64,000 nucleotides of DNA from Escherichia coli (GCF_003334305.1 NZ_QOWS01000017.1), one strand, 5' to 3'. Numbered from the stretch's first letter, positions 37,019 to 55,198 are shown. The notes: generated by a model not told the origin, from the sequence alone. Numbers and translations are program-made.

Positions 37019-37092
37019 GCAGCCAGCTTTATCAGTCAGAGTGAAGACTCGCAGATTTAGCTGGCGCACAAGATTTAATCAAGGTGTGTTCA

Positions 37093-38181
37093 ATGGCTTC
37101 GCATGATTTGAGTGTTTTTTTGGAAGAGTTCGGGGCAACGGTGAATTTGACGTTGCCTGGTATCGTGTCCGAAAAAGAACGGCTTTTACTCAAGCTGCTA
37201 ATGGAGGGAATGTCGGTTACAGAAATCTCACAGTACAGAAATCGCAGTGCAAAGACAATTTCACATCAAAAGAAGCAGCTGTATGAAAAACTAGGCATCC
37301 AGAGTGATATTACCTTCTGGCGGGATATCTTTTTTCAATATCATCCGCAAGTCATCAGTGGCACGGGAAATAAAAATAATTTTTATATCCCTGATAACCG
37401 TTGTCACCATATCGTCACGCCTGAAGCCATCAGTCTGGCGTTGGAAAACCACGAATTCAAACCGTGGATCCAACCGGTTTTCTGCGCGCAGACTGGGGTA
37501 CTGACGGGCTGTGAGGTACTTGTCCGCTGGGAACATCCACAAACGGGAATTATCCCACCGGATCAGTTTATTCCTCTGGCGGAGTCATCCGGTCTTATTG
37601 TCATAATGACCCGCCAACTGATGAAACAGACTGCGGATATTCTGATGCCGGTAAAACATTTGCTGCCGGACAATTTCCATATTGGCATCAACGTCTCGGC
37701 GGGTTGTTTTTTGGCAGCGGGATTTGAAAAAGAGTGTCTGAACCTGGTTAAGAAATTAGGTAACGATAAAATCAAGCTGGTTCTCGAGCTAACGGAACGT
37801 AATCCTATTCCGGTAACGCCAGAAGCCAGAGCGATATTTGACAGCCTTCATCAGCACAACATTACCTTTGCGCTGGATGACTTTGGTACGGGTTATGCGA
37901 CCTATCGTTACTTGCAGGCGTTCCCGGTCGATTTTATTAAGATCGATAAGTCATTTGTGCAAATGGCGAGTGTCGACGAAATCTCCGGTCATATTGTGGA
38001 CAATATTGTCGAACTAGCGCGTAAGCCTGGTCTGAGTATCGTGGCGGAAGGGGTAGAAACCCAGGAGCAGGCGGATTTAATGATCGGTAAAGGCGTTCAC
38101 TTTTTGCAGGGCTATTTGTACTCTCCGCCAGTACCGGGTAATAAATTTATCTCTGAATGGGTAATGAAAGCAGGTGGTTGA
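37093..38181 (+). CDS. pdeL: PdeL (YahA) c-di-GMP phosphodiesterase with LuxR-type HTH and EAL domain, 362 aa
   Basis: N-terminal LuxR helix-turn-helix (LLMEGMSVTEISQYRNRSAKTISHQKKQLYEKLGI) and C-terminal EAL domain (ELTERNP, DDFGTGYATYRYL); start taken at the ATG at 37093. Confidence 0.9.
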   Translation: MASHDLSVFLEEFGATVNLTLPGIVSEKERLLLKLLMEGMSVTEISQYRNRSAKTISHQKKQLYEKLGIQSDITFWRDIFFQYHPQVISGTGNKNNFYIPDNRCHHIVTPEAISLALENHEFKPWIQPVFCAQTGVLTGCEVLVRWEHPQTGIIPPDQFIPLAESSGLIVIMTRQLMKQTADILMPVKHLLPDNFHIGINVSAGCFLAAGFEKECLNLVKKLGNDKIKLVLELTERNPIPVTPEARAIFDSLHQHNITFALDDFGTGYATYRYLQAFPVDFIKIDKSFVQMASVDEISGHIVDNIVELARKPGLSIVAEGVETQEQADLMIGKGVHFLQGYLYSPPVPGNKFISEWVMKAGG

Positions 38182-38222: not shown

Positions 38223-39155
38223 TTAATTCTCCCGATGCAGTAAATCCTGATAGATCCCCGTTAATATGCCATTTGGCGCAAATTGTTTTTTAATCCACTG
38301 CGTCACCTGACCCGTAGCAGAATGCTGAGTCGCCAGTAACATGCGCGAATCCTGGCGCGGATTATGGATTTGTCGGGTAACCAGCAGGGATTGCGTCATC
38401 GCCTCACGGACCATGTAATCCGGCAAAAAACCAATTCCTTCACCTAAAATCTGGCACTGACATTTGGTGTTGAAATCTGGCACCAGAATTGACTCCTGCC
38501 CGTGCAGCAACCAGCCCACTTTTTTATTAATCGTATGCGCGGTGTCCTCCACCATAATATTAGGGTAGAGACGCAGTTGGCTTTCGGCGATGGGTTCCGG
38601 CACAAAGGCTAACGGGTGATCCGGGGCGATAGCAAAAGCCCAGCGAATCGCGCCAATTTCAGTGTAATCAATACCGCCGCCGTCCAGTAGTGTATCGGGT
38701 GCGCCGATGGCGATATTGGCCTGATTATTAATAATCGCATCCCAGACGCCGTTATACACTTCGGTGGTGACGGTAATCTGGCAGGTAGGAAACTGCTTTT
38801 TCAGCACCTGTAACAAGCGTGCGGTGTGTTTGGGCGTATAAAGCAGCTGATTAATACAAATGCGCACACGTGCTTCTATGCCCTGCGAAATAGTATCGAT
38901 ACTGCGTTTGATGGCGTGAAAATCATTCAGCAGGTCGGTAGCTTTGCGGAAAAAATAACGCCCGGACTCCGTTAACTCAATGCTGCGGGTACTGCGAGTG
39001 AACAGCACCACATCCAGCCCCGTCTCCATACGCTTGATGGTGTAGCTAATGGCGGAAGTGGTTAAACCCAACTCTTCTGCGGCTTTACTGAAGCTGCCAA
39101 AACGCGCAGCGGTAGTAAATGCCAACAGATTCTCTTCGGTAAAAATTGAGTTCAT
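38223..39155 (-). CDS. yahB: YahB LysR-family transcriptional regulator, 310 aa
   Basis: LysR N-terminal helix-turn-helix (FTTAARFGSFSKAAEELGLTTSAISYTIKRME); divergent from the yahD operon. Confidence 0.85.
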   Translation of the reverse strand: MNSIFTEENLLAFTTAARFGSFSKAAEELGLTTSAISYTIKRMETGLDVVLFTRSTRSIELTESGRYFFRKATDLLNDFHAIKRSIDTISQGIEARVRICINQLLYTPKHTARLLQVLKKQFPTCQITVTTEVYNGVWDAIINNQANIAIGAPDTLLDGGGIDYTEIGAIRWAFAIAPDHPLAFVPEPIAESQLRLYPNIMVEDTAHTINKKVGWLLHGQESILVPDFNTKCQCQILGEGIGFLPDYMVREAMTQSLLVTRQIHNPRQDSRMLLATQHSATGQVTQWIKKQFAPNGILTGIYQDLLHREN

Positions 39156-39246
39156 TAAACCATTCTCGCCATTATCTACTATGAATTTCTCCAGCTATGA
39201 CTGTAGAGGTATCGGTTAAAGATAGATAATCATTTTTGAATAACTT

Positions 39247-39744
39247 TTAATACCCGTCGCGTTTAGTCGTCGCTTCGCTTAATTTTTGTCCACCATATTC
39301 TGAAATTATCCCCACGCAGTTACCCGCCAGAAAACCCAGTAACGTCACCGTCCAGTTCATCCCGCTGGCAAAAAACAGCGTCATGCCGAGAAAGCCACCG
39401 GGAATAAAGGACAGTAACCAGAAACGCCCTTGCCAGACCACTACCGCCGAGAAGGGTACGGTAGTAATTACGCTCGCCCAGAACGCGGACAGTCCACTTA
39501 CAGAGGCCAGCCAACCGGCAGCCAGCGCGGCGAAAAATGCCCACACCATCCCGGAATAATTAACCGCCAGACTTCTGATAAACCCCGATTTACCGCCGCC
39601 TGCGGCATAAAAACTGCAAAAGGCGACGAAGCCAATGGTTCCTAATAATTCCCATCCCTGAGAGAGCCCGACATGTGAAGACACTAACTGCCAAAGCCCT
39701 GCACAAATACCGACGGTGACACCCGTTGCCGTGAGTCCGTTCAT
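39247..39744 (-). CDS. yahC: YahC membrane protein, 165 aa
   Basis: Polytopic hydrophobic protein; K-12 order yahB-yahC. Confidence 0.8.
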   Translation of the reverse strand: MNGLTATGVTVGICAGLWQLVSSHVGLSQGWELLGTIGFVAFCSFYAAGGGKSGFIRSLAVNYSGMVWAFFAALAAGWLASVSGLSAFWASVITTVPFSAVVVWQGRFWLLSFIPGGFLGMTLFFASGMNWTVTLLGFLAGNCVGIISEYGGQKLSEATTKRDGY

Positions 39745-40001
39745 CTTGTTCCCCTCTGGTTAGACATGGACGAAAGCTACTCTTACATGTGCAGACTATA
39801 GAGAAATAAAACCTGATTGAGTGAAAGGGTATCGGGTCAAAGAAACAAATATTGCACTACCGCACACTGCGAAAAGATTGTTGAACATCATTCAACAAAA
39901 AGGCGAAATACAGCGAATTAAATTTAAGCGGGTTCTTTTATCAGATTATCGTTGCTATTCTCAATTCATCGAAAACAGCCACAAAAACCAGGGGAATGTG
40001 A

Positions 40002-40607
40002 ATGAGTATAAAAAATCTACCTGCCGACTATTTATTGGCTGCACAACAGGGTGATATCGATAAAGTAAAAACCTGCCTTGCGCTGGGTGTCGATATTAAT
40101 ACCTGCGATCGTCAGGGGAAAACGGCAATTACGCTGGCAAGTTTATATCAGCAATATGCTTGCGTTCAGGCATTAATTGATGCCGGAGCGGATATTAATA
40201 AGCAAGATCATACCTGTTTAAATCCTTTTTTAATTAGCTGTCTGAACGATGATTTAACGCTACTACGAATTATTTTACCGGCTAAACCCGATCTTAATTG
40301 CGTAACCCGTTTTGGCGGTGTCGGCCTGACGCCTGCCTGTGAAAAAGGCCATTTAAGTATTGTAAAAGAGCTTTTGGCGCATACGGAGATTAACGTTAAC
40401 CAGACCAACCATGTAGGCTGGACGCCGCTACTGGAAGCGATTGTGCTTAATGATGGTGGTATTAAACAGCAGGCGATTGTGCAGTTATTGCTGGAACACG
40501 GTGCCAGCCCGCATCTGACCGATAAATATGGCAAAACGCCACTGGAACTGGCGCGGGAACGGGGCTTTGAAGAGATTGCGCAGTTACTGATTGCCGCAGG
40601 TGCATAA
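40002..40607 (+). CDS. yahD: YahD ankyrin-repeat protein, 201 aa
   Basis: Ankyrin repeats (GKTAITLASLYQQYACVQALIDAGADIN...; GWTPLLEAIV...LLLEHGASP). Confidence 0.85.
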   Translation: MSIKNLPADYLLAAQQGDIDKVKTCLALGVDINTCDRQGKTAITLASLYQQYACVQALIDAGADINKQDHTCLNPFLISCLNDDLTLLRIILPAKPDLNCVTRFGGVGLTPACEKGHLSIVKELLAHTEINVNQTNHVGWTPLLEAIVLNDGGIKQQAIVQLLLEHGASPHLTDKYGKTPLELARERGFEEIAQLLIAAGA

Positions 40608-40646
40608 ACCGGGAGGCTTGCTATCAACACACCAGAAAGACGGTGT

Positions 40647-41510
40647 GTGTGGGCGCTAACTGCGGATGCGGATTTTCTGGCGCAGCGGGGGCAAGGACAG
40701 GTTGAACAGGTCTTTGCCAGAGCGGTAAATATCGCACTCCCGGCTCGCCAGCAGTTGCTGACGCTGCTTTGTGAAGAGTACGACAATGCGCCAAACAGTT
40801 GTCGGTTGGCACTCACTCACTTTGATGATCTGTTCCGGCATGGTGATAAGGTTCAGTTTGACGATCAAGGTATTACGGTTGGTCAACATCTTCATATAGA
40901 GATGAGTCGTTGTCGGCGTTGGCTGTCCCCAACCTTGCAAATGACCGCTGTGAATTTTCACCTTATCGCCTGGCTACAGTGGCACGACATTATTCATCAG
41001 CACCTGGGGGAAAATGAAACCCTGTTTAATTATCGCGGCGATAATCCGTTTTATCAGGCGTTAAATAAAGAACTACATATTAAACGACGGGCAGTTATTC
41101 AGGCAGTAAACGAAAAACAAAATATCGCCGCAGCGGTCGCCAGTATGATTGGGTTAGGGATTGGCCTTACGCCATCAGCCGACGATTATTTAACAGGTCT
41201 GGCGCTTATTTTATTTATTCCCGGGCATCCGTCGGAAAAATACAAAGAGGAATTTTATCTCGGTATGCAGCGCGGCAGAAATAACACCACATTATTAAGT
41301 GCTATAACGCTGGAAGCCGCATTACAACAACGTTGCCGGGAAAATATTCATCGTTTTATTCACAACATTATTTATGACATCCCTGGGAACGCAACTCAGG
41401 CAATAGAAAAAATTAAACATATTGGCTCCAGTTCCGGCTGCGACATGCTGTATGGCATGGCCGATGGTTGTGCGCTGAGCCAAACCTACGGAGGGAATTA
41501 TGTCAGTTAA
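40647..41510 (+). CDS. yahE: YahE (DUF2877-type) protein, 287 aa
   Basis: 287-aa ORF whose end overlaps the yahF start by 11 nt; family assignment from recalled annotation. Confidence 0.8.
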   Translation: MWALTADADFLAQRGQGQVEQVFARAVNIALPARQQLLTLLCEEYDNAPNSCRLALTHFDDLFRHGDKVQFDDQGITVGQHLHIEMSRCRRWLSPTLQMTAVNFHLIAWLQWHDIIHQHLGENETLFNYRGDNPFYQALNKELHIKRRAVIQAVNEKQNIAAAVASMIGLGIGLTPSADDYLTGLALILFIPGHPSEKYKEEFYLGMQRGRNNTTLLSAITLEAALQQRCRENIHRFIHNIIYDIPGNATQAIEKIKHIGSSSGCDMLYGMADGCALSQTYGGNYVS

Positions 41511-43047
41511 AATAGTCATTAAACCGAATACCTATTTTGATTCTGTCTCGCTGATGTCTATCTCCACGCGTGCAAATAAACTCGACGGCGTCGAGCAGGC
41601 ATTTGTGGCGATGGCGACCGAAATGAACAAAGGTGTACTGAAAAATTTAGGACTGCTGACGCCGGAGCTGGAACAGGCGAAAAACGGCGACCTGATGATT
41701 GTCATCAACGGCAAAGCGGGCGCGGACAACGAACAGTTGCTGGTGGAGATTGAAGAACTGTTCAACACCAAAGCGCAAAGCGGCTCGCATGAGGCGCGTT
41801 ACGCCACTATTGCCAGCGCCAAAAAGCATATCCCGGAAAGTAACCTGGCGGTGATTTCGGTCAACGGTCTGTTTGCCGCTCGCGAAGCGCGTCAGGCGCT
41901 GCAAAACGATCTCAACGTGATGCTGTTTTCCGATAACGTCTCAGTTGAAGATGAATTGGCGCTCAAGCAACTGGCCCACGAAAAAGGGCTGCTGATGATG
42001 GGGCCAGACTGTGGCACGGCGATTATTAACGGCGCGGCGCTCTGTTTTGGTAACGCCGTGCGTCGCGGCAACATCGGTATTGTTGGCGCATCCGGCACCG
42101 GCAGCCAGGAGCTGAGCGTCCGCATTCATGAATTTGGCGGCGGCGTTTCGCAACTGATTGGCACCGGCGGGCGCGACCTGAGCGAGAAAATCGGCGGCCT
42201 GATGATGCTCGACGCCATCGGCATGCTGGAAAACGATCCGCAAACTGAAATCATTGTGCTTATCTCCAAACCGCCCGCGCCTGCGGTGGCCCGCAAAGTG
42301 CTGGAACGCGCGCGCGCCTGCCGCAAGCCGGTGGTGGTCTGTTTCCTCGGTCGTGGCGAAACGCCAGTGGATGAGCAGGGGCTACAGTTTGCCCGCGGCA
42401 GCAAAGAGGCGGCATTGAAAGCGGTGATGCTCTCCGGCGTGAAACAGGAACATCTCGACCTGCATACGCTGAACCAGCCGTTGATTGCTGACGTACGTGC
42501 TCGCCTGCAACCGCAGCAGAAGTACATTCGTGGCCTGTTCTGTGGCGGCACGCTGTGTGACGAAACCATGTTCGCGGTGATGGAAAAACACGGCGATGTC
42601 TACAGCAACATTCAGCCCGATCCGGAATTCCGCCTGCAAGATATCAACCGTAGCATCAAACACACCTTCCTCGACTTTGGCGATGACGACTTCACCAACG
42701 GCAAGCCGCATCCAATGATTGACCCCACCAACCGCATCAGTCGCTTGATCGAAGAGGCGCGCGATCCAGAAGTGGCGGTGATCGTGATGGATTTTGTGCT
42801 CGGATTTGGATCGCATGAAGATCCGGTCGGCTCCACCATTGAGGCGATCAAAGAAGCGAAAGCGATCGCCGCTGCCGAAGGCCGTGAGTTGATCATTCTC
42901 GCCTATGTGCTGGGCACCGATCTTGATACGCCATCATTAGAACAACAAAGCCAGATGCTGCTTGATGCCGGAGTGATTCTGGCGAGCAGCAGCACCAATA
43001 CCGGATTGCTGGCGCGTGAATTTATCTGCAAAGGGGAGGAAGCCTGA
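41500..43047 (+). CDS. yahF: YahF, FdrA-like protein with succinyl-CoA-synthetase-alpha-like CoA-binding fold, 515 aa
   Basis: 515-aa ORF with Gly-rich nucleotide/CoA-binding segments (GIVGASGTGSQE, MMGPDCGT); family assignment from recalled annotation. Confidence 0.85.
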   Translation: MSVKIVIKPNTYFDSVSLMSISTRANKLDGVEQAFVAMATEMNKGVLKNLGLLTPELEQAKNGDLMIVINGKAGADNEQLLVEIEELFNTKAQSGSHEARYATIASAKKHIPESNLAVISVNGLFAAREARQALQNDLNVMLFSDNVSVEDELALKQLAHEKGLLMMGPDCGTAIINGAALCFGNAVRRGNIGIVGASGTGSQELSVRIHEFGGGVSQLIGTGGRDLSEKIGGLMMLDAIGMLENDPQTEIIVLISKPPAPAVARKVLERARACRKPVVVCFLGRGETPVDEQGLQFARGSKEAALKAVMLSGVKQEHLDLHTLNQPLIADVRARLQPQQKYIRGLFCGGTLCDETMFAVMEKHGDVYSNIQPDPEFRLQDINRSIKHTFLDFGDDDFTNGKPHPMIDPTNRISRLIEEARDPEVAVIVMDFVLGFGSHEDPVGSTIEAIKEAKAIAAAEGRELIILAYVLGTDLDTPSLEQQSQMLLDAGVILASSSTNTGLLAREFICKGEEA

Positions 43048-44465
43048 TGAGCCAGTCACTGTTTAGCCAACCATTGAACGTTATTAACGTCGGCATCGCC
43101 ATGTTTAGCGATGATCTGAAAAAGCAGCATGTAGAAGTGACTCAACTCGACTGGACGCCGCCGGGGCAGGGCAATATGCAGGTGGTGCAGGCGCTGGATA
43201 ACATTGCCGATTCGCCGCTGGCAGACAAAATCGCCGCCGCTAACCAGCAGGCGCTGGAGCGCATTATCCAGTCGCATCCGGTGCTGATTGGTTTTGATCA
43301 GGCGATTAACGTGGTGCCGGGCATGACGCCGAAAACCATTCTTCACGCCGGGCCGCCGATCACCTGGGAAAAAATGTGCGGCGCGATGAAAGGCGCGGTC
43401 ACCGGGGCGTTGGTGTTCGAAGGGCTGGCGAAAGATCTCGATGAGGCGACTGAACTGGCGGCCTCCGGGGAGATCACCTTCTCGCCGTGCCACGAACACG
43501 ACTGCGTGGGATCGATGGCGGGCGTTACCTCGGCCTCGATGTTTATGCACATCGTGAAAAACAAAACCTACGGCAACATCGCTTATACCAATATGAGCGA
43601 GCAGATGGCGAAGATTTTGCGTATGGGTGCCAACGATCAGAGCGTGATCGACCGCCTCAACTGGATGCGCGATGTGCAGGGGCCAATGCTGCGCGACGCG
43701 ATGAAAATTATCGGTGAGATCGATCTGCGCTTAATGCTGGCGCAGGCGCTGCATATGGGCGATGAGTGCCATAACCGCAATAACGCCGGGACGACGCTGC
43801 TGATTCAGGCACTGACGCCGGGGATCATTCAGGCAGGCTATTCCGTCGAGCAACAGCGCGAAGTGTTCGAGTTTGTCGCCAGCAGCGACTACTTCTCCGG
43901 CCCGACGTGGATGGCGATGTGTAAAGCGGCGATGGATGCGGCGCACGGCATCGAATACAGCACCGTGGTCACCACCATGGCGCGTAACGGCGTCGAGTTC
44001 GGCCTGCGGGTCAGCGGCCTGCCGGGGCAGTGGTTTACCGGCCCAGCGCAGCAGGTCATCGGCCCGATGTTTGCTGGTTATAAGCCGGAAGATTCGGGGC
44101 TGGATATCGGCGACAGCGCCATCACAGAAACCTACGGTATTGGCGGGTTTGCCATGGCGACCGCGCCTGCAATCGTCGCACTGGTGGGCGGCACGGTGGA
44201 AGAGGCTATCGATTTCTCCCGTCAGATGCGCGAAATCACCCTTGGCGAAAACCCCAACGTCACCATTCCGCTGCTCGGTTTTATGGGCGTGCCGTCGGCA
44301 ATCGACATCACCCGCGTGGGTAGCAGCGGCATTCTGCCGGTGATCAACACCGCCATCGCCCATAAAGATGCGGGCGTCGGCATGATTGGCGCGGGCATTG
44401 TGCATCCACCATTCGCCTGCTTCGAGAAAGCCATTCTCGGCTGGTGCGAACGTTACGGCGTCTGA
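43047..44465 (+). CDS. yahG: YahG (DUF1116-type) protein, 472 aa
   Basis: Start ATG overlaps the yahF stop (ATGA); 472-aa soluble protein; family assignment from recalled annotation. Confidence 0.85.
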   Translation: MSQSLFSQPLNVINVGIAMFSDDLKKQHVEVTQLDWTPPGQGNMQVVQALDNIADSPLADKIAAANQQALERIIQSHPVLIGFDQAINVVPGMTPKTILHAGPPITWEKMCGAMKGAVTGALVFEGLAKDLDEATELAASGEITFSPCHEHDCVGSMAGVTSASMFMHIVKNKTYGNIAYTNMSEQMAKILRMGANDQSVIDRLNWMRDVQGPMLRDAMKIIGEIDLRLMLAQALHMGDECHNRNNAGTTLLIQALTPGIIQAGYSVEQQREVFEFVASSDYFSGPTWMAMCKAAMDAAHGIEYSTVVTTMARNGVEFGLRVSGLPGQWFTGPAQQVIGPMFAGYKPEDSGLDIGDSAITETYGIGGFAMATAPAIVALVGGTVEEAIDFSRQMREITLGENPNVTIPLLGFMGVPSAIDITRVGSSGILPVINTAIAHKDAGVGMIGAGIVHPPFACFEKAILGWCERYGV

Positions 44466-44469
44466 CTTA

Positions 44470-44585
44470 CATGTTTATGCCGGATGCGGTGTGAACGCCT
44501 TATCCGGCCTACGGATGGCCCGAGAATTGTAGGCCTGATAAGCGTAGCGCATCAGGCAGTCTGGCGTTGGTCATAACCTAATCAC
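44470..44585. repeat. REP elements between yahG and yahI
   Basis: Imperfect palindromic units gccggatgcggtg...cttatccggcctac and gtaggcctgataagcgtagcgcatcaggc typical of E. coli REP sequences. Confidence 0.75.
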
Positions 44586-44607
44586 CCTCTGTAGCGGACA
44601 TAACAAC

Positions 44608-45558
44608 ATGAAAGAGCTTGTGGTCGTTGCCATTGGTGGCAACAGCATTATCAAAGATAACGCCAGCCAGTCGATTGAGCATCAGGCGGAGGCGGTGAAA
44701 GCCGTGGCCGATACGGTGCTGGAAATGCTGGCTTCCGATTACGACATTGTGCTGACCCACGGTAACGGGCCGCAGGTCGGGCTGGATTTACGCCGTGCGG
44801 AGATTGCCCACGAGCGCGAAGGGCTGCCCTTAACGCCGCTGGCGAACTGTGTGGCAGATACGCAGGGCGGCATCGGCTATCTGATCCAACAGGCGCTGAA
44901 TAACCGGCTGGCGCGTCACGGCGAGAAAAAAGCCGTCACCGTGGTAACTCAGGTGGAAGTGGATAAAAACGATCCAGGTTTTGCCCATCCCACCAAGCCC
45001 ATTGGTGCATTCTTCAGTGAAAGCCAGCGTGACAAACTACAAAAGGCAAACCCTGACTGGTGTTTTGTTGAAGATGCCGGACGGGGCTATCGCCGCGTGG
45101 TCGCCTCGCCGGAACCGAAACGTATTGTCGAAGCACCCGCCATTAAGGCGCTGATCCAACAAGGTTTTGTCGTAATTGGCGCGGGCGGCGGTGGAATTCC
45201 GGTAGTGCGTACTGAAGCGGGGGATTACCAAAGCGTGGACGCGGTTATTGACAAAGATCTCTCTACCGCGCTGCTGGCCCGTGAAATTCACGCCGACATT
45301 CTGGTGATCACCACCGGCGTCGAAAAAGTCTGTATCCACTTTGGTAAACCGCAGCAGCAGGCGCTGGATCGGGTGGATATTGCCACCATGACTCGCTATA
45401 TGCAGGAAGGGCATTTTCCGCCCGGCAGCATGTTGCCAAAAATCATCGCCAGCCTGACGTTCCTGGAGCAGGGCGGCAAAGAAGTGATTATCACCACGCC
45501 GGAATGCCTGCCTGCGGCGCTGCGCGGTGAAACGGGCACCCATATTATTAAAACGTAA
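44608..45558 (+). CDS. yahI: YahI carbamate kinase-like protein, 316 aa
   Basis: Amino-acid kinase family motifs (VVAIGGNSI, THGNGPQVG, FVVIGAGGGGIPV). Confidence 0.85.
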   Translation: MKELVVVAIGGNSIIKDNASQSIEHQAEAVKAVADTVLEMLASDYDIVLTHGNGPQVGLDLRRAEIAHEREGLPLTPLANCVADTQGGIGYLIQQALNNRLARHGEKKAVTVVTQVEVDKNDPGFAHPTKPIGAFFSESQRDKLQKANPDWCFVEDAGRGYRRVVASPEPKRIVEAPAIKALIQQGFVVIGAGGGGIPVVRTEAGDYQSVDAVIDKDLSTALLAREIHADILVITTGVEKVCIHFGKPQQQALDRVDIATMTRYMQEGHFPPGSMLPKIIASLTFLEQGGKEVIITTPECLPAALRGETGTHIIKT

Positions 45559-45567
45559 GGACGTAGG

Positions 45568-46950
45568 ATGAAAGAAAGCAATAGCCGCCGTGAATTTCTG
45601 AGCCAGAGCGGTAAGATGGTCACCGCCGCCGCGCTGTTTGGTACCTCTGTGCCGCTCGCCCATGCGGCGGTAGCTGGCACCCTAAACTGCGAAGCGAACA
45701 ACACCATGAAAATCACTGACCCGCATTACTATCTCGATAACGTGCTGCTGGAAACCGGTTTTGACTACGAAAACGGTGTGGCGGTGCAGACCCGCACGGC
45801 GCGCCAGACCGTGGAGATTCAGGACGGCAAAATTGTCGCCCTGCGCGAGAACAAGCAGCATCCGGACGCCACGCTGCCGCACTATGACGCTGGCGGTAAG
45901 TTGATGCTACCCACCACTCGCGACATGCATATTCATCTCGACAAAACCTTCTACGGCGGGCCGTGGCGCTCGCTCAATCGTCCGGCAGGCACCACTATCC
46001 AGGACATGATCAAACTCGAGCAGAAAATGCTGCCGGAGTTACAACCGTATACGCAGGAGCGGGCGGAAAAACTGATCGATCTATTGCAGTCGAAAGGCAC
46101 CACCATTGCCCGCAGCCACTGCAATATCGAACCGGTTTCCGGCCTAAAAAATCTGCAAAATTTGCAGGCGGTGCTGGCGCGGCGTCAGGCGGGCTTCGAG
46201 TGTGAAATCGTCGCCTTCCCGCAGCACGGTTTGCTGCTGTCGAAATCGGAACCCTTAATGCGCGAAGCGATGCAGGCGGGTGCGCATTACGTCGGCGGGC
46301 TGGACCCGACCAGTGTTGATGGCGCGATGGAAAAATCCCTCGACACCATGTTTCAGATTGCGCTGGACTACGACAAAGGTGTCGATATTCACCTGCACGA
46401 AACCACTCCGTCGGGCGTGGCAGCCATCAATTATATGGTTGAAACGGTAGAGAAAACGCCGCAACTGAAAGGTAAGTTGACCATCAGCCACGCCTTTGCG
46501 CTGGCTACGCTCAACGAACAACAGGTCGATGCGCTGGCGAATCGGATGGCGGCGCAGCGAATTTCTATCGCCTCGACGGTGCCGATTGGCACGCTGCATA
46601 TGCCGCTCAAACAGTTGCACGACAAAGGCGTAAAAGTGATGACTGGCACTGACAGCGTTATCGACCACTGGTCGCCTTATGGTCTGGGCGACATGCTGGA
46701 AAAAGCCAATCTCTACGCGCAGCTCTATATTCGTCCTAACGAACAGAACCTCTCCCGTTCGCTGTTTCTAGCCACTGGCGATGTATTGCCGCTGAATGAA
46801 AAAGGCGAGCGTGTATGGCCAAAAGCGCAGGATGATGCCAGCTTTGTGCTGGTGGACGCCTCCTGTTCCGCCGAGGCGGTGGCGCGTATCTCGCCGAGAA
46901 CCGCAACGTTCCATAAAGGGCAACTGGTGTGGGGGAGTGTGGCAGGTTGA
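45568..46950 (+). CDS. yahJ: YahJ amidohydrolase-superfamily deaminase with twin-arginine (Tat) signal peptide, 460 aa
   Basis: N-terminal SRREFLSQSGKMVTAAALFGTSVPLAHA Tat-type signal; metal-dependent amidohydrolase motifs (HIHLDKT, DIHLHET). Confidence 0.85.
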   Translation: MKESNSRREFLSQSGKMVTAAALFGTSVPLAHAAVAGTLNCEANNTMKITDPHYYLDNVLLETGFDYENGVAVQTRTARQTVEIQDGKIVALRENKQHPDATLPHYDAGGKLMLPTTRDMHIHLDKTFYGGPWRSLNRPAGTTIQDMIKLEQKMLPELQPYTQERAEKLIDLLQSKGTTIARSHCNIEPVSGLKNLQNLQAVLARRQAGFECEIVAFPQHGLLLSKSEPLMREAMQAGAHYVGGLDPTSVDGAMEKSLDTMFQIALDYDKGVDIHLHETTPSGVAAINYMVETVEKTPQLKGKLTISHAFALATLNEQQVDALANRMAAQRISIASTVPIGTLHMPLKQLHDKGVKVMTGTDSVIDHWSPYGLGDMLEKANLYAQLYIRPNEQNLSRSLFLATGDVLPLNEKGERVWPKAQDDASFVLVDASCSAEAVARISPRTATFHKGQLVWGSVAG

Positions 46951-47248
46951 TGCGCATTTGAAACGCCTGCAACGGTGAATTGTAAGAGATTTAAGCCCCA
47001 GGGAGTGGGGCGGGAATGGTTTGCTAATGAATGATCCTGAACTTTATAATCTCGCGGCATAATTTCCAGGGGATTATTTGAGAGAAATACACAAAAGTGA
47101 GTTTTAACAAAGGTATTTATCAGGCCATAAATGTGACCTGCTTCGGATAAAAAAGATTCAGTATCGAAAAACCAATGATACTCTTGCTGATGGTTACCAA
47201 CAGTAATTAAGATGTGATTTGTTTTTCCGTAATCGCAAAAATATTGCC

Positions 47249-47659
47249 ATGACCATAAAAGAAAAATTCTCACAAAAATATCCCCATGCTTCCTTTTGTA
47301 CTTTTGGCGATTCAGCAGCGTTGGCCGATCACCTCGCAACGTTGATTGCGACTGGTGTTAAAACAGCTTCCTGTGGTTCGCTGGCGGGATGTATTGAAGA
47401 CAACGCATTTCCGATGATTGGTGAGTATAAGATTGTAGAAAATAGCCGTGGTGAGCCTGTATGTGTTATCAGAGTGATTGGCCTGCATTTACTGCGCTTT
47501 TCTGATGTCACCGTGGAGCTTGCCCGTAAGGAAGGTGAAGGTGACCTCAGTCTTGAATATTGGCGTAATGAACACCGTCGTTTTTTCCAGGCAGAAGGAA
47601 GCTATTCACCAGAAATGGACGTTATATTTGAAGAATATGCCCTTATTGACGTTGTGTAG
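47249..47659 (+). CDS. ASCH-domain protein (about 136 aa)
   Basis: Small beta-barrel ASCH-like protein; start chosen at MTIKEKF, though the track ORF begins 10 codons earlier. Confidence 0.55.
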   Translation: MTIKEKFSQKYPHASFCTFGDSAALADHLATLIATGVKTASCGSLAGCIEDNAFPMIGEYKIVENSRGEPVCVIRVIGLHLLRFSDVTVELARKEGEGDLSLEYWRNEHRRFFQAEGSYSPEMDVIFEEYALIDVV

Positions 47660-47909
47660 ATAACTATTTATCTACGCGAAATAAACTCACACACATAAAA
47701 TATCGCTAATTTTGTTTATTTTGCTATTTTTTACGTGATGAATGTCACACTTATTGTTGCTGCCCGTTTTGTCCATATTTATAACCATATTTTTAATAGC
47801 TGCCTGAAATAGGGCTGTTTATTCTGCATAAAAATATTCGAAAATTCTTATTCTCTCCAGCGCGCTAATTTGGGCGAACACTTCCTGACTACCCTGCAAT
47901 GAGGCTGAA

Positions 47910-48896
47910 ATGATGAATAAACGTTTTGTTATCAATATGGTGTCTTCGCTGTTATTAGGCGCTGCGCTAATTTCTGCGCCGCTCCAGGCAGCGGAAAAAG
48001 TCGTGGTGAATATCTCTAAAGTCGATGGTATGCCGTGGTTTAATCGCATGGGCGAAGGTGTGGTTGAGGCGGGTAACGCCTTTGGTGTTAATGCGTCACA
48101 GGTGGGGCCTTCAAGTACTGATGCTCCGCAACAAGTTAAAATTATTGAGGATTTAATCGCCCGTAAGGTTAATGCAATTACTATCGTGCCAAACGATGCC
48201 AACGTGCTGGAACCGGTATTCAAAAAAGCGCGAGATGCCGGAATTGTGGTTCTGACCAACGAATCCCCCGGTCAGCCAAGTGCTAACTGGGATATCGAAA
48301 TCATTGATAACGAAAAATTTGCCGCTGAATATGTTGAGCATATGGCGAAACGCATGGGGGGCAAGGGCGGCTATGTGATTTACGTGGGTAGTTTGACCGT
48401 GCCGCAGCATAACTTATGGGCTGACTTGCTGGTGAAATACCAGAAAGAGCATTACCCGGATATGCATGAAGTTACCCGCCGCATGCCGGTTGCCGAGAGT
48501 GTGGATGACTCACGTCGTACCACACTGGACCTGATGAAAACCTATCCTGACTTGAAAGCGGTTGTCTCCTTTGGTTCAAACGGTCCGATTGGCGCGGGAC
48601 GTGCGGTGAAAGAGAAACGGGCGAAAAATAAAGTCGCAGTCTATGGCATGATGATCCCTTCACAGGCGGCATCACTGATTAAAAGTGGTGATATCACCGA
48701 AGGGATTACTTACGATCCGGCCTCTGCAGGTTACGCACTCGCAGCCGTCGCCAGCACGTTGCTGAAGGGTGAAGAGATCAAACCTGGATTAGAAATGCAG
48801 AATCTGGGTAAGGCCGACGTAGATATGGATAAGCGAATTATCCGTTTCCATAAGGTATTACTGGTCAACAAAGACAATATCGACTCACTTTATTAA
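47910..48896 (+). CDS. ABC transporter periplasmic substrate-binding protein, LsrB/RbsB-like
   Basis: Signal peptide (…LLLGAALISAPLQA) and periplasmic binding protein type I features (NAITIVPND, DAGIVVLTNESP, VVSFGSNGPIGAGRAV). Confidence 0.75.
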   Translation: MMNKRFVINMVSSLLLGAALISAPLQAAEKVVVNISKVDGMPWFNRMGEGVVEAGNAFGVNASQVGPSSTDAPQQVKIIEDLIARKVNAITIVPNDANVLEPVFKKARDAGIVVLTNESPGQPSANWDIEIIDNEKFAAEYVEHMAKRMGGKGGYVIYVGSLTVPQHNLWADLLVKYQKEHYPDMHEVTRRMPVAESVDDSRRTTLDLMKTYPDLKAVVSFGSNGPIGAGRAVKEKRAKNKVAVYGMMIPSQAASLIKSGDITEGITYDPASAGYALAAVASTLLKGEEIKPGLEMQNLGKADVDMDKRIIRFHKVLLVNKDNIDSLY

Positions 48897-48929
48897 TCCA
48901 TTTCTTCGGGGCGAAAGCCCCGATTCTTA

Positions 48930-50429
48930 TTGCCAGGGGATGTTATGGAAACTTTCCTTTCCCTTCGTCATATCAACAAAACGTTTCATGCCACGCGAGC
49001 GCTGCGCGATGTTTCTCTCGACTTTATGTCGGGTGAAGTGCACTGCCTTGCCGGGCAAAACGGCTGTGGTAAATCGACGTTGATTAAAATTATGTCCGGT
49101 GTTTATCGCCCGGATGAGGGAGCGGAAATTACGCTTGGTGGGAAAAACTGGTCAAAGCTGACACCCGCCGCTTCGGTGGCGCAGGGGATTCAGGTGATTT
49201 ATCAGGACCTCTCTTTATTTCCTAACCTGAGTGTCTGGGAGAATATCGCCGTGAATCACTATCACCACGGTCTGTTTGTTAACCGCCGTCGTCTGCGTGA
49301 GGTGGCGCAGGCGGCAATGACCAGTATTAACGTCACATTGCCACTGGATACACTCGTTTCTGAGCTTTCAATTGCCCGCTGTCAGCTGGTAGCAATTTGC
49401 CGTGCACTGGCGCAGGACGCACGGTTGATCGTGATGGATGAACCAACCGCTTCGCTGACCCATCAGGAAGTGCAAGGGTTATTACAGGTGGTGCATCAAT
49501 TGCGGGAACGCGGGATCTGCGTGGTCTTCGTCAGTCATCGTCTGGAAGAAGTGATGGAAGTTTCCGACCGTATTTCAGTGCTGAAAGATGGTGAGCTGGT
49601 CGGGACTTTTCCGGCTGCAGAGATGACCACAAAACAACTCGGTTTCCTGATGACCGGCCAGGAGTTCGAATATCAGGTGCGAGAGTTGTGGCAGGGAAAA
49701 TCCAGCACCCCGGTGCTTGAGGTGCGTAATTTAAGTCGTCATGGGGAATATCTAAATATTAACTTGCGGGTGGAAGCGGGCGAAGTGGTATCGATTGTTG
49801 GCCTGCTTGGTGCGGGGCGCACGGAATTATGTCTGAGTCTGTTTGGTATGACCCGACCGGATGCTGGCGAGATCCTCATCAACGGCCAGCCGGTTACACT
49901 GCATAGTAACCAGGACGCTATCCGCCACGGTATTGGTTATGTTTCGGAAGATCGCATGTCGCGCGGTTTGGTGATGGCGCAATCTATTGAAGACAACATC
50001 ATTAGCACTGTTTTTCACAAGGTAAAAGATCGCTTCGGCTTTCTGAGTGAAACTAAAGTTCGTGACCTGGTGGACAGGCTAATCAAGGCATTGACCATCA
50101 AAGTCTCTGATCCTCATCTTCCGGTGAATACGCTTTCTGGTGGTAACGCGCAGCGAGTATCGATCGCCAAATGGCTGGCGATTGGGCCACGACTGTTGAT
50201 TCTCGATAGCCCGACAGTCGGTGTTGATATCGCCAACAAAGCAGGAATATACGGCATTATCAGCGATCTGGCGGCTCATGGCATTGCGGTATTGATGATC
50301 TGCGATGAAATTGAAGAAGCGTGGTATCAAAGCCACCGGATTTTGGTAATGCAAAAAGGTCAGATCACCCATAGCTTCCTGCCTGACAGCAGTTCTCAGG
50401 CCAGGATTGCGGAGGTGGTAAATGGCTGA
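48930..50429 (+). CDS. ABC transporter ATP-binding protein with two fused ATPase domains (LsrA/RbsA-like)
   Basis: Walker A GQNGCGKST, ABC signature LSGGNAQRV, and a second degenerate nucleotide-binding domain; start may be the Met at 48945. Confidence 0.8.
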   Translation: MPGDVMETFLSLRHINKTFHATRALRDVSLDFMSGEVHCLAGQNGCGKSTLIKIMSGVYRPDEGAEITLGGKNWSKLTPAASVAQGIQVIYQDLSLFPNLSVWENIAVNHYHHGLFVNRRRLREVAQAAMTSINVTLPLDTLVSELSIARCQLVAICRALAQDARLIVMDEPTASLTHQEVQGLLQVVHQLRERGICVVFVSHRLEEVMEVSDRISVLKDGELVGTFPAAEMTTKQLGFLMTGQEFEYQVRELWQGKSSTPVLEVRNLSRHGEYLNINLRVEAGEVVSIVGLLGAGRTELCLSLFGMTRPDAGEILINGQPVTLHSNQDAIRHGIGYVSEDRMSRGLVMAQSIEDNIISTVFHKVKDRFGFLSETKVRDLVDRLIKALTIKVSDPHLPVNTLSGGNAQRVSIAKWLAIGPRLLILDSPTVGVDIANKAGIYGIISDLAAHGIAVLMICDEIEEAWYQSHRILVMQKGQITHSFLPDSSSQARIAEVVNG

Positions 50430-51393
50430 ACTGAAAAAACGCCATGAATTCTGGCTGGCATTACTGATTGTGGTGCTGTTTGTTGGCCTTGCCTGGCGCA
50501 GCGACGAGTTTCTGACATTCGGTAATTTGTACGATCTCGCCAATAACTATGCCATGTTGACTATTCTCGCCTGTGGTTTGTTTGTGGTGTTGATTTCCGG
50601 TGGAATTGATATTTCGTTTCCAGCAATGACCATCATTGCGCAATACGGCATGGTGCTGTTGCTGCAAAAAATTGGTGGCAACTTCGCTGTCGCGTTTGCA
50701 CTGGCGGGCTGCATCGGCATTTTACTTGGCTTAATTAACGCCTTACTGGTTAATCGCCTACGGGTGCCTTCTATCATCATCACTATCTCGACGCTGAATA
50801 TTTTCTATGGCCTGCTGTTATGGTTGAGTAAAGGTGTGTGGCTGTACGACTTTCCGCCGTGGTTTGAGCAGGGGGTTATGTTGTTCAAGTACACCGATGC
50901 TGATGGCTATGACTATGGCCTTGGTCTGCCGCTGATCGCCATGATTACGGTGGTGCTGCTAACAGCGTTTATCATGAATTTCACCAGTGTAGGGCGCAAA
51001 ATTTATGCCCTTGGCGGGAACCGCGAATCAGCCAGTCGCATCGGCTTTAGCGTGCTGAAACTGCAACTTTTCGTCTATGGCTATATGGGATTGATGTCTG
51101 GCGCTGCGGGTGTAGTGCAGTCGTGGACGGTGATGACTGTCGCCCCCGATTCTCTTCTGGGTTATGAGCTGACAGTACTGGCTGCGGTGGTGCTTGGCGG
51201 CACTAGTTTGCTCGGCGGGCGCGGCACGTTAACCGGTACTTTGCTCGGCGTGGTGTTGTTGGCAGTGATGCAAAACGGGCTAAATTTATTGGGAGTCTCG
51301 TCTTACTGGCAAACATTGATCACCGGCATCATCATCGTTGCCAGCATTAGTGCCACGGCGTGGAGTCAGCATCAGAACCGGAGTCTGCTATGA
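50422..51393 (+). CDS. ABC transporter permease 1 (LsrC/RbsC-like)
   Basis: Polytopic membrane protein; overlaps the end of the ATPase gene. Confidence 0.8.
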   Translation: MAELKKRHEFWLALLIVVLFVGLAWRSDEFLTFGNLYDLANNYAMLTILACGLFVVLISGGIDISFPAMTIIAQYGMVLLLQKIGGNFAVAFALAGCIGILLGLINALLVNRLRVPSIIITISTLNIFYGLLLWLSKGVWLYDFPPWFEQGVMLFKYTDADGYDYGLGLPLIAMITVVLLTAFIMNFTSVGRKIYALGGNRESASRIGFSVLKLQLFVYGYMGLMSGAAGVVQSWTVMTVAPDSLLGYELTVLAAVVLGGTSLLGGRGTLTGTLLGVVLLAVMQNGLNLLGVSSYWQTLITGIIIVASISATAWSQHQNRSLL

Positions 51394-52346
51394 AAAAATC
51401 GTGGCGTAATAACGTTGAGTTTTACTTGATCGGCCTGCTGGTGCTAACTGTTGCCGCGTTCAGCATTACTATGCCGGAGATTTTCTGGTCGATAAGTAAT
51501 TTCCAGTCCGTCGCTTCGCAAATGCCCGTGCTGGGCATTCTGGCGTTGGCTATGGCGGTGACCATGCTTTGCGGTGGCATTAACTTGTCAATTATAGCCA
51601 CTGCTAACGCCTGTTCACTGGTGATGGCGTGGGTGGCGACTCAGTATCCACCGGGTATTGCTACGGTTGTCGCTACGTTACTGGCGGGCGCTGGCGCGGC
51701 GGTGATAATCGGTTTATGTAACGGCGTATTGATTGCTGGTATTCGAGTGTCGCCAATTCTTGCAACGCTTGGGATGATGACGTTGCTCAAAGGGATAAAT
51801 ATTCTGGTGACAGGTGGTAGCGCCATTGCCAATTATCCCTCATGGGTGCTGTGGTTGAATCATGCGCAATGGTTCGGTATTCCGCTACCGATGTGGTTGT
51901 TTGCCGCAGTGGCACTGGGGCTATGGATATTGCTGGAGAAAACGCCGCTCGGTAAAGCCATTTACCTGATTGGGTCTAACGAACGAGCAACACTTTACTC
52001 CGGCATTAACACTCGTCGGGTGCTGATTTGGGTTTATGTCATTTCCGCCTTGCTTTGTGCGGTAGCGGCATTTTTGATGATGTCGAAACTCAACTCGGCT
52101 AAGGCCTCTTATGGCGAATCGTACTTGCTGGTGTCAATCCTCGCGGCAGTACTCGGTGGGGTTAATCCGGACGGCGGCAGCGGGCGGATAATTGGTATGG
52201 TGCTGGCGCTGTTTCTTCTGCAAATTATTGAAAGCGGCTTCAATATTCTCGGTATAAGCCCCTACCTGACGATGGCCTTATGGGGAACGTTGCTGCTCTG
52301 TTTCATTCAGGTTCGCGGCATGTTGGGGCTGGATCGGGTGGTTTAA
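51390..52346 (+). CDS. ABC transporter permease 2 (LsrD/RbsC-like)
   Basis: Polytopic membrane protein; ATGA start/stop overlap with permease 1 (start taken at MKKSWRNN). Confidence 0.75.
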   Translation: MKKSWRNNVEFYLIGLLVLTVAAFSITMPEIFWSISNFQSVASQMPVLGILALAMAVTMLCGGINLSIIATANACSLVMAWVATQYPPGIATVVATLLAGAGAAVIIGLCNGVLIAGIRVSPILATLGMMTLLKGINILVTGGSAIANYPSWVLWLNHAQWFGIPLPMWLFAAVALGLWILLEKTPLGKAIYLIGSNERATLYSGINTRRVLIWVYVISALLCAVAAFLMMSKLNSAKASYGESYLLVSILAAVLGGVNPDGGSGRIIGMVLALFLLQIIESGFNILGISPYLTMALWGTLLLCFIQVRGMLGLDRVV

Positions 52347-52432
52347 ATATTGGCTATATTCAATGGACGCGTTTTGCCGCGATGACATATCAGGCGTCGC
52401 CAAATACACATAGCTAATCAGGAGTAAACACA

Positions 52433-53482
52433 ATGAAGATCAAAGCTGTTGGTGCATATTCCGCTAAACAACCACTTGAACCGATGGATATCACACGGCG
52501 TGAACCGGGACCGAATGATGTCAAAATCGAAATCGCTTACTGTGGCGTCTGCCATTCCGATCTCCACCAGGTCCGTTCCGAGTGGGCGGGGACGGTTTAC
52601 CCCTGCGTACCGGGTCATGAAATTGTGGGGCGTGTGGTAGCCGTTGGTGATCAGGTAGAAAAACATGCGCCGGGCGATCTGGTCGGTGTCGGCTGCATTG
52701 TCGACAGTTGTAAACATTGCGAAGAGTGTGAAGACGGGCTGGAAAACTACTGTGATCACATGACCGGCACCTATAACTCGCCGACGCCGGACGAACCGGG
52801 CCATACTCTGGGCGGCTACTCACAACAGATCGTCGTTCATGAGCGATATGTTCTGCGTATTCGTCACCCGCAAGAGCAGCTGGCGGCGGTGGCTCCTTTG
52901 TTGTGTGCAGGGATCACCACGTATTCGCCGCTACGTCACTGGCAGGCCGGGCCGGGTAAAAAAGTGGGCGTGGTCGGCATCGGCGGTCTGGGACATATGG
53001 GGATCAAGCTGGCCCACGCGATGGGGGCGCATGTGGTGGCATTTACCACTTCTGAGGCAAAACGCGAAGCGGCAAAAGCCCTGGGGGCCGATGAAGTTGT
53101 TAACTCACGCAATGCCGATGAGATGGCGGCTCATCTGAAGAGTTTCGATTTCATTTTGAATACAGTAGCTGCGCCACATAATCTCGACGATTTTACCACC
53201 TTGCTGAAGCGTGATGGCACCATGACGCTGGTTGGTGCGCCTGCGACACCGCATAAATCGCCGGAAGTTTTCAACCTGATCATGAAACGCCGTGCGATAG
53301 CCGGTTCTATGATTGGCGGCATTCCAGAAACTCAGGAGATGCTCGATTTTTGCGCCGAACATGGCATCGTGGCTGATATAGAGATGATTCGGGCCGATCA
53401 AATTAATGAAGCCTATGAGCGAATGCTGCGTGGTGATGTGAAATATCGTTTTGTTATCGATAATCGCACACTAACAGACTGA
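52433..53482 (+). CDS. yahK: YahK NADPH-dependent aldehyde reductase (zinc-dependent alcohol dehydrogenase family), 349 aa
   Basis: Zinc alcohol dehydrogenase motifs (GVCHSDLH, GHEIVGRVVAVG, GVVGIGGLGHMG). Confidence 0.9.
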   Translation: MKIKAVGAYSAKQPLEPMDITRREPGPNDVKIEIAYCGVCHSDLHQVRSEWAGTVYPCVPGHEIVGRVVAVGDQVEKHAPGDLVGVGCIVDSCKHCEECEDGLENYCDHMTGTYNSPTPDEPGHTLGGYSQQIVVHERYVLRIRHPQEQLAAVAPLLCAGITTYSPLRHWQAGPGKKVGVVGIGGLGHMGIKLAHAMGAHVVAFTTSEAKREAAKALGADEVVNSRNADEMAAHLKSFDFILNTVAAPHNLDDFTTLLKRDGTMTLVGAPATPHKSPEVFNLIMKRRAIAGSMIGGIPETQEMLDFCAEHGIVADIEMIRADQINEAYERMLRGDVKYRFVIDNRTLTD

Positions 53483-53724
53483 AAAAATTAATAAATACCC
53501 TGTGGTTTAACATATTAACTTCGCTCTCCACTTAACTTTTTAGTTAAGGAGAGCGAAATAATATCAAAGTAGCAGTAAAACCTATAACGTAAATTCAAAT
53601 TGTTAAATTAACTCCCTCCAGTACACAATACTTCTCACGTTAGTTATGAGCGATTTCTGATAGTGCCTGGTTTAATGAGAGCTTTATTATCTGCGACGTT
53701 TATTTTTATTTAAGAGAGATCGCG

Positions 53725-54540: not shown

Positions 54541-54952
54541 TTCAGAAAGGGTTCCACCTGCAAGTTGTTATTCCACCAGAGAGTGAATCGCAAAGCAGGT
54601 AATCATTTCATCTGTATATCCGTATGCCAAATGGCATTCCACCGCCTTTTTCGCCGATATTTTGTTGTGATCGGCGACGCTTCGCTTAAAAAAGCACCAG
54701 CAGTGGTTTCGCAGCTATGCGGTGTATAAAAAATGATCTCATGCAGATGTTTTGTGAATGTGTGGGTTGACATTCATATGAAAAAAATCATAATTCCATC
54801 ATGTTTGTGTGGGGTCTTTTCTGTACCTTACGCATCGCACTCAAGCCTGACAGAAAATATGCTGTAAGGCTCATATCAAAAACCGCCATTAGCTCATCAG
54901 GAAGAGCAGACGACAACCAGGATTGTTGTATGGTACGGGGTTCGAGGCCTCG

Positions 54953-55198
54953 ATGGCGGTCCAACTTTTCAAAACTCTTCTGAATCAGATCCCCTTATTA
55001 TCATCCCTGCAAAGTGGAACATTGCCATTGTTTGGCTATTCAGGACGGGGCAGACCAATGAAAAAAGCCCACACAGGGGAGAGTGGGCTGAAATGGGAAG
55101 CTAAAGACTCAAGTAAACTTATCGGAAATAAGGACCACGCATTACGGGGGCTATCATCGCCGATGGCCGGGATTCGGCAAATCAGGTTGATTACGTAG
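54953..55198 (+). CDS. Possible YahM small protein (81 aa)
   Basis: ORF in the expected position between yahL and yahN; start chosen at the internal Met to give 81 aa. Weak support. Confidence 0.3.
   Translation: MAVQLFKTLLNQIPLLSSLQSGTLPLFGYSGRGRPMKKAHTGESGLKWEAKDSSKLIGNKDHALRGLSSPMAGIRQIRLIT

Follow-up and report, generated by a model that had tools for sequence, protein, structure and literature searches.

The stretch of DNA analysed here (the window) comprises 64,000 nucleotides of an Escherichia coli genome (GCF_003334305.1, NZ_QOWS01000017.1), and positions are counted from its first letter. Between yahJ and yahK it carries five genes, all on the plus strand: a gene for a small ASCH-domain protein, followed by four genes for an ATP-binding cassette (ABC) importer that encode a periplasmic binding protein, a double-domain ATPase and two permeases (Table 1). 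This gene content, called from the sequence in an earlier note, was borne out by the open reading frame (ORF) list and by Pfam and NCBIfam matches, and the ORF coordinates agree with the note's statement that the last permease gene ends 86 bp before yahK. In E. coli H15, whose genome is 100% identical, the RefSeq annotation likewise has these five genes flanked by yahJ and yahK. The note had also taken K-12 to lack these genes, and in K-12 MG1655 a mere 376-bp spacer separates yahJ from yahK. Its description of the locus as accessory likewise holds, with at least 80% of the 5.5-kb segment, our criterion for a full locus, being present in 2212 of the 5426 complete E. coli genomes surveyed. An Rfam scan of 46800-53600 returned zero RNA families. 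The locus is best explained, with a probability that we put at about 0.9, as two independent units, the already published transporter AauABCD and the ASCH gene, standing in an old Escherichia arrangement that became polymorphic by loss.

Table 1. Features of the yahJ-yahK interval, in window coordinates.
Feature	Position	Strand	Basis or remark
yahJ	45568-46950	+	ORF list
Deletion 1 in K-12-type alleles (promoter region and bulk of the ASCH gene)	47012-47609		22 bp of unrelated sequence in its place
Sigma-70 promoter-like site, TTGCTA, 18-nt spacer, TATAAT	47021-47050	+	10/12 consensus matches; consensus match only
ASCH-domain gene, 136 aa, YhfF/COG4405 type	47249-47659	+	ORF list, Pfam PF04266; alternative TTG start 47219
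CRP-like site CGTGA-N6-TCACA	47734-47749		Putative; sequence read side by side with the K-12 araBAD promoter
Deletion 2 in K-12-type alleles and E2593 (AraC site, aauABC, most of aauD)	47754-52274		Left end approximate
Candidate AraC I1-I2 tandem half-sites TGCCCGTTTTGTCCATA-TTTA-TAACCATATTTTTAATA	47761-47798	+	Consensus match
Candidate -10 hexamer TATTCT	47820-47825	+	Putative; 21 nt 3' of I2
aauA (Z0415), periplasmic D-ribulose-binding protein, 328 aa with signal peptide	47910-48896	+	Identity to 9I1M; published cloning and qPCR primers
GC-rich hairpin with T-rich tail	48906-48923	+	Just 3' of aauA
aauB (Z0416-7), fused double-domain ABC ATPase, 494 aa, intact	48945-50429	+	ORF opens at TTG 48930
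aauC (Z0418), permease, 323 aa	50422-51393	+	ORF list, NCBIfam; published primers at 50412-50438 and 50826-50847
aauD (Z0419), permease, 318 aa	51390-52346	+	ORF opens at GTG 51360; NCBIfam, RefSeq annotation
aauD-yahK spacer, 86 bp, kept in the K-12 scar	52347-52432	+	99% conserved in K-12
yahK	52433-53482	+	ORF list

By sequence identity, the transporter genes are those of the already published Aau system (AauABCD), Z0415-Z0419 on O-island 17 of O157:H7, described as 'accessory L-arabinose uptake' by Cottam et al. (Nat Commun 2024, PMC11127945) and followed up with respect to D-ribulose (Nat Commun 2025, PMC12307932; PDB entry 9I1M is cited in the bioRxiv version of the latter). A search for literature on yahJ and yahK with an ABC transporter found none, and it was the O157 locus tags that led to Aau. 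Nine of the 12 published primers tested match the window exactly, at 47604-47911, 47910, 50412-50438, 52329-52346, 47938-48037 and 50826-50847, the three unmatched ones being quantitative PCR (qPCR) primers as transcribed from the supplement PDF; they place the promoter-reporter fragment at 47604-47911 and the cloned operon from 47910 to the aauD stop at 52346 (reverse primer 52329-52346). AauA of the window is identical to 9I1M at 326 of 328 residues (99%), all six D-ribulose contact residues (K37, W43, E118, H167, E196 and S223; residue list from PMC12307932) are kept with the same numbering, and O157:H7 genomes carry the locus segment at 99.2% identity. It is on these exact primer positions, the match to 9I1M, the conserved contacts and the O157:H7 identity that the assignment to Aau is based.

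Given that substrate, regulator, structure and in vivo role have all been published, the transporter is already known. AauA binds D-ribulose with a dissociation constant of 1.98 µM and L-arabinose with one of 598 µM in isothermal titration calorimetry, an affinity about 300-fold weaker; D-ribulose shifts its melting by 16 °C and D-ribose by 2 °C, and the crystal holds alpha-D-ribulose bound by the six residues named above (PMC12307932). The substrate was thus not unknown, as the earlier note had it, nor AI-2-like (AI-2, autoinducer-2), and the ligand screen by thermal shift that it proposed had already been carried out and extended by calorimetry and crystallography. Induction of aau responds to L-arabinose only and is fully AraC-dependent (PMC11127945), with Z0417, Z0415 and Z0418 rising 43-, 26- and 7-fold, respectively, in the published RNA sequencing with L-arabinose. 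Uptake of D-ribulose takes place solely after aau has been induced by L-arabinose; once inside, the sugar receives its phosphate from AraB, the ribulokinase encoded in ara (PMC12307932), and the phosphorylated product is reported to enter the pentose phosphate pathway. In the gut of streptomycin-treated mice, bacteria with Aau outcompeted those without it 10- to 100-fold (PMC11127945). The transporter is therefore a gut-colonisation fitness factor of pathogenic E. coli, published with its substrate, structure, regulator and animal data. Transferred to the window, transcription would start from a promoter in the ASCH-aauA spacer in dependence on AraC and L-arabinose, AauA would take up alpha-D-ribulose in the periplasm and pass it to the paired permeases AauC and AauD, import would be driven by AauB, the fused double ATPase, and AraB would phosphorylate the sugar for entry into the pentose phosphate pathway.

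The name of the system and its inducer raise the possibility that the main physiological cargo is L-arabinose (or L-ribulose), which would make Aau a genuine third importer of the arabinose regulon. Induction by L-arabinose alone via AraC fits this, as does the partial rescue of an araE mutant by aau over-expression (PMC11127945); in addition, orthologues lie inside ara operons beside araC, araB, araA and araD, and none of the Pasteurellaceae loci has a second ABC transporter within the flanks of about 10 kb examined. However, the calorimetric constants and the alpha-D-ribulose in the crystal favour the ketopentose, deletion of aau leaves growth on L-arabinose undiminished (PMC11127945), and the Rbl-type relatives, whose contact residues are identical, stand beside a pentulose kinase and a KpsF-like isomerase, the published Rbl system being responsive to D-ribulose and unresponsive to L-arabinose. 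We therefore regard L-arabinose (or L-ribulose) as an unlikely main cargo.

The four genes have the features of a CUT2 (ribose-type) importer, namely a type I binding protein, a fused ATPase of about 500 residues and BPD_transp_2 permeases; the corresponding Pfam domains (PF13407, PF00005 and PF02653) were recorded on the copy of the transporter in another E. coli assembly (L085). In the NCBIfam search the ATPase gave full-length matches to AraG, YtfR, XylG and RbsA, each below its equivalog cut-off, the permeases were of the ribose/arabinose type (matches to RbsC, AraH and LsrC/D), and the binding protein showed a distant likeness to RhaS and LsrB; the AraF/AraG and RhaS equivalogs missed their NCBIfam cut-offs. 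The start of aauB was set at the ATG at 48945, which is preceded by a GGGGA ribosome-binding site, orthologues being 493-496 residues long. RefSeq/PGAP begins this ATPase at 49026, 27 codons 3' of the start common to homologues.

An importer of the Lsr (AI-2) or Rbs (ribose) type, as the earlier note proposed, would agree with the RefSeq product name on AauA and with the distant similarity of AauA to LsrB, both to the NCBIfam model (E about 1e-31) and to LsrB structures. By contrast, every equivalog falls well below its cut-off (LsrB 110 versus 384 bits, RbsB 45 versus 337, RbsA 374 versus 745, RbsC 151-161 versus 398), and the published thermal shift with D-ribose is small next to that with D-ribulose. 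The AI-2 contacts of LsrB are reportedly K35, D116, D166, Q167, P220 and A222, positions that we checked on chain 5GTA; in the alignment to this chain only one of the six is matched in AauA (K35 = K37), the remaining LsrB/AauA pairs being D116/E118, D166/Q166, Q167/H167, P220/F221 and A222/S223. Moreover, zero lsrK, lsrR, lsrF or lsrG genes lie nearby in the ORF list or in the RefSeq annotation of the identical genome. An AI-2 or ribose importer is scarcely credible on this evidence. For AauA, which fails the LsrB model, the product name given by RefSeq/PGAP ('autoinducer 2 ABC transporter substrate-binding protein') misleads.

Orthologous loci in other genera bear on the age of the system and on its regulation. 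At least 70 genomes from Enterobacterales, Pasteurellaceae, Vibrio and Aeromonas have the four aauABCD-type genes together as one unit, with binding-protein identities of 65-92% in Klebsiella, Franconibacter, Mangrovibacter, Yersinia, Providencia, Budvicia/Limnobaculum, many Pasteurellaceae, Vibrio and Aeromonas. Twenty-six loci have araC close by, in most cases directly adjoining the transporter genes, and several have araB, araA and araD there as well; these neighbours score above their NCBIfam equivalog cut-offs (AraC 492 versus 208, AraB 801 versus 428, AraA 822 versus 622). A further group, at about 60% identity, has a FGGY pentulose kinase and a KpsF-like isomerase downstream, matching the published Rbl system of Citrobacter rodentium. 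None of the 77 homologues departs from AauA at any of the six D-ribulose contact positions. In Pasteurellaceae (L041-L060, about 14300-15950) the Aau-type operon has araC upstream and, downstream, a gene for a 530-aa FGGY kinase, which is weakly XylB-like, scores under every NCBIfam equivalog cut-off and in one locus (L077) is followed by araA; this kinase may be a distinct type of ribulokinase.

In the spacer between the ASCH gene and aauA, a PBAD-like promoter can be proposed, with a putative CRP site, tandem candidate AraC half-sites over the -35 region and a weak -10 hexamer. The candidate AraC site falls inside the reporter fragment whose AraC dependence has been published. It agrees with the consensus at 15 of 20 positions, as did 1 of 500 shuffles, and a control scan of the K-12 araBAD promoter recovered the true araI1-I2 at 17/20 and araO1 at 15/20. 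The CRP-like site is placed two turns 5' of the half-sites, as in PBAD, and the distance from I2 to the -10 hexamer is 20 nt in PBAD (TACTGT) versus 21 nt at aauA. Tandem AraC-type sites were found upstream of 46 of 59 Aau-type loci versus 1 of 18 Rbl-type loci and 2 of 385 shuffles. Hairpins are common after binding-protein genes, and the one after aauA is likely a partial terminator or stabiliser, which would leave an excess of the binding-protein transcript.

From the ara neighbours, the conserved AraC sites and the invariant ketopentose pocket taken together, we consider it slightly better than an even chance that the Aau type is an ancient, conserved member of the AraC regulon in Enterobacterales and Pasteurellaceae, ancestral in Escherichia at yahJ-yahK, with the K-12 allele representing an old two-step deletion shared with a cryptic Escherichia species. 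If so, Aau would not be an acquisition of enterohaemorrhagic E. coli (EHEC) that 'hijacks' AraC, and its distribution would reflect a presence/absence polymorphism of long standing, which niche may maintain.

The polarity of that polymorphism can be read from what K-12 has kept. Its spacer begins with a piece equivalent to 46951-47011, followed by 22 unrelated bases, and continues with a 72-bp piece at 93% identity to 47610-47681 (the terminal 50 bp of the ASCH gene and the bases 3' of it), a degenerate stretch related to about 47710-47753, and a 158-bp piece at 99% identity to 52275-52432 (the last 72 bp of aauD and the spacer). RefSeq annotates a C-terminal gene fragment in this K-12 spacer. 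Given that the spacer holds the 3' ends of both the ASCH gene and aauD, K-12 is a double-deletion derivative (deletions 1 and 2 in Table 1); remnants of 72 bp and 158 bp that are 93-99% identical are implausible as chance similarities. The larger deletion starts just at I1. Among the surveyed genomes, 2803 carry the contiguous K-12-type scar, as a single aligned piece with 96-100% identity in the sampled rows, and the 2212 full-locus genomes match at 98-100% identity, the others being rare partial cases or genomes with no match; the phylogroup distribution is covered by a published analysis of 949 genomes. Full-locus copies within E. coli differ by up to 2%, as core genes do when phylogroups are compared. 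A single two-step deletion scar would be common to K-12 and roughly half of the E. coli sequenced, the polymorphism having arisen by loss.

Two Escherichia lineages outside E. coli add to this picture. Escherichia sp. E2593 (L083, 8001-8647), in which the yah genes show about 93-95% identity to those of the window, has yahJ, a complete ASCH gene and yahK, and aauABCD is deleted. The right end of this deletion is the K-12 junction (window 52273-52275), so that the aau deletion is shared across species boundaries or is older than them. The genome L029, which represents its species in GTDB under the label E. coli SCPM-O-B-8794, matches the window at about 89% identity over 21 kb and has aauABCD-yahK-yahL in synteny, with 91-93% nucleotide identity for aau and 89% for yahK and the flanks. 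This lineage bears a deletion of its own (L029, 9600-9700; window 38282-47559), which fuses yahB with the final 100 bp of the ASCH gene at a 9-bp microhomology, TTGGCG[C/T]AA, and has removed the whole yahC-yahJ cluster while aauABCD was kept. No tRNA, integrase or border repeat was found at the locus in the ORF list, a tRNA scan and a repeat search. Combining the scar remnants in K-12, the E2593 allele, the synteny in the 89%-identical lineage and this lack of mobility marks, the yahJ-ASCH-aauABCD-yahK block appears to predate the diversification of E. coli and to have been lost several times. A 25-nt inverted repeat with 76% complementarity (46897-46921/52275-52299), whose right arm starts exactly at the right junction of the K-12 deletion, was also seen and may be a chance occurrence.

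The earlier note had described the five genes as inserted, and a recently acquired genomic island between core yahJ and yahK would explain why they are missing from K-12 and about half of E. coli, as well as the low GC content over 47000-48000, the lack of an aauA match in the E. fergusonii and E. albertii representative genomes, the 92%-identical copy standing in a different context in Klebsiella pneumoniae and the literature's wording of a 'horizontally acquired OI-17'. Unlike an empty insertion site, however, K-12 and the 2803 scar genomes keep ASCH and aauD fragments. The aau genes have diverged by 7-9% in the lineage at about 89% identity, where they are syntenic with yahK. E2593 provides an intermediate allele, divergence within E. 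coli reaches up to 2%, the level of core genes between phylogroups, and neither mobility genes nor a tRNA nor border repeats accompany the locus. A recent event is thus already largely refuted, and recent island acquisition carries little probability. The lineage distribution about which the note asked has a published answer.

Several points weigh against the two-unit, old-arrangement reading that we prefer. A search with aauA gave no match in E. fergusonii or E. albertii, as represented in GTDB, so that a gain may have occurred at the root of E. coli plus its cryptic clades or earlier; the ASCH segment is low in GC (about 41%), which is compatible with an earlier foreign origin. The Aau papers use the wording 'horizontally acquired' and 'EHEC-specific' (PMC11127945, PMC12307932), which would at best be true of a much older event. 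As for regulation, the AraC, CRP and -10 assignments are motif matches. Where orthologues stand inside ara operons, the main substrate in those taxa may be L-arabinose or L-ribulose, even though the contact residues are conserved. Finally, Z0414, a 'hypothetical protein' gene that is probably the ASCH gene, judging from the EDL933 gene numbering, rose 3.7-fold with L-arabinose in the published RNA sequencing even though it lies 5' of the aau promoter, a result that fits poorly with full independence of the two units.

The note had further tied the importer to its neighbours. On a reading of this kind it would serve the yah genes, by carrying a substrate or product of a YahEFGIJ pathway or an aldehyde or sugar reduced by YahK, with yahK co-transcribed from the aau promoter. 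The shared gene orientation and the 86-bp aauD-yahK spacer speak for such a link; no terminator was seen in this spacer, whose fold is no better than that of shuffles (z = 0.79), and some read-through into yahK is therefore possible. However, neither yahK nor yahJ figures among the genes published as responding to L-arabinose, in which list aau genes are 7- to 43-fold up, with the caveat that the strain used has a polar premature stop in aauB and that Z0419 is likewise unlisted. Outside Escherichia the transporter is never beside yahJ or yahK homologues and instead adjoins araC/araBAD or other genes, K-12-type strains and E2593 keep yahK and the 158 bp upstream of it without the transporter, and the known downstream enzyme is AraB. 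With D-ribulose as its cargo, control by AraC and L-arabinose, and AraB as its kinase, the importer is very unlikely to belong to a yah pathway.

The ASCH gene is treated as an independent neighbour and not as part of the transporter because it is absent from beside the aau orthologues at every locus examined outside Escherichia, persists without aau in E2593 and has a promoter-like site of its own, which lies in the segment deleted in K-12. The ASCH domain (Pfam PF04266) was matched over residues 27-133 with E = 1.2e-21, and the NCBIfam search assigned the protein to zero families. Homologues at 50-65% identity occur across Enterobacterales and share the invariant motifs G-x-K-T..C-G-S and A-R-K-E-G-E-G-D-L-S-L. 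A K38, S/T41, E95-E97 pattern is conserved among them and is a candidate equivalent of the K-T-E triad of the N4-acetylcytidine amidohydrolase YqfB; BLASTP against a YqfB sequence gave no alignment. The product would be a small cytoplasmic protein that is not part of the transporter, and the gene, if the block is ancestral, would be an unstudied further piece of it.

Two candidates were set aside as comparators. The assembly GCA_046507365.1 (L085) looked like an outgroup, its ASCH product being 77% identical, and proved to be E. coli at 97.9% identity in an indel-ridden assembly, with every gene of the region broken by indels and 79 gap openings in 16 kb. A contig from a 'Bacteroidales' metagenome-assembled genome, considered as evidence of transfer, is a 100%-identical E. 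coli aau contig and hence contamination. Elsewhere in the window, a tRNA-Ser(GGA) called by ARAGORN between yahL and yahM (54883-54963, plus strand) has no Rfam tRNA at that place and is probably a false positive. An ORF for a 1349-aa autotransporter of the AIDA-I family (32902-36951, plus strand), just 5' of an EAL phosphodiesterase gene (yahA/pdeL-like, 37084-38181), is probably another strain-variable adhesin island.

Term searches in the texts of PMC11127945 and PMC12307932 turned up nothing on the adjoining ASCH gene, on yahJ and yahK as flanks, on the deletion scar of K-12 or on a binding site for AraC. What the present analysis adds to them is the evidence for the deletion scar and ancestry, the promoter model, the ara-operon synteny of orthologues, the independence of the ASCH gene and the misleading RefSeq name. 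If the locus is ancestral and has been lost repeatedly, its association with EHEC would be read as retention and not as gain.

Compared with known systems, the ASCH ORF resembles the YhfF-type (COG4405) structures 1T62 of Enterococcus faecalis (E = 6e-19) and 3S9X (E = 2e-15), both without assigned function, with which it shares the G-x-K-T...EGEGD motifs. LsrACDB likewise has a CUT2 layout with two permeases and a binding protein distantly similar to that of Aau, but five of the six AI-2 contact residues differ and no lsrK, lsrR, lsrF or lsrG gene lies nearby. AraFGH, the canonical high-affinity ABC importer of L-arabinose, belongs to the same regulon (AraC, L-arabinose), and AraG is the best NCBIfam match of the AauB ATPase (423 bits versus a cut-off of 689), whereas AraFGH has one permease versus two in Aau, AauA has no AraF match and the preferred ligands differ. 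C. rodentium's Rbl system (RblABCD-RblK-RblI) shares the transporter architecture of Aau at about 60% identity, and the Rbl-type group has the same six contact residues as AauA. By contrast, Rbl-type loci carry the FGGY pentulose kinase and KpsF-like isomerase genes directly 3', both missing from the window, where yahK comes next, and, unlike Aau-type loci, are without AraC-type sites upstream. Aau of enterohaemorrhagic E. coli has the same gene order, position and ligand-contact residues as the window; its aauB contains a premature stop in EDL933/TUV93-0 (PMC11127945), whereas aauB of the window is intact.

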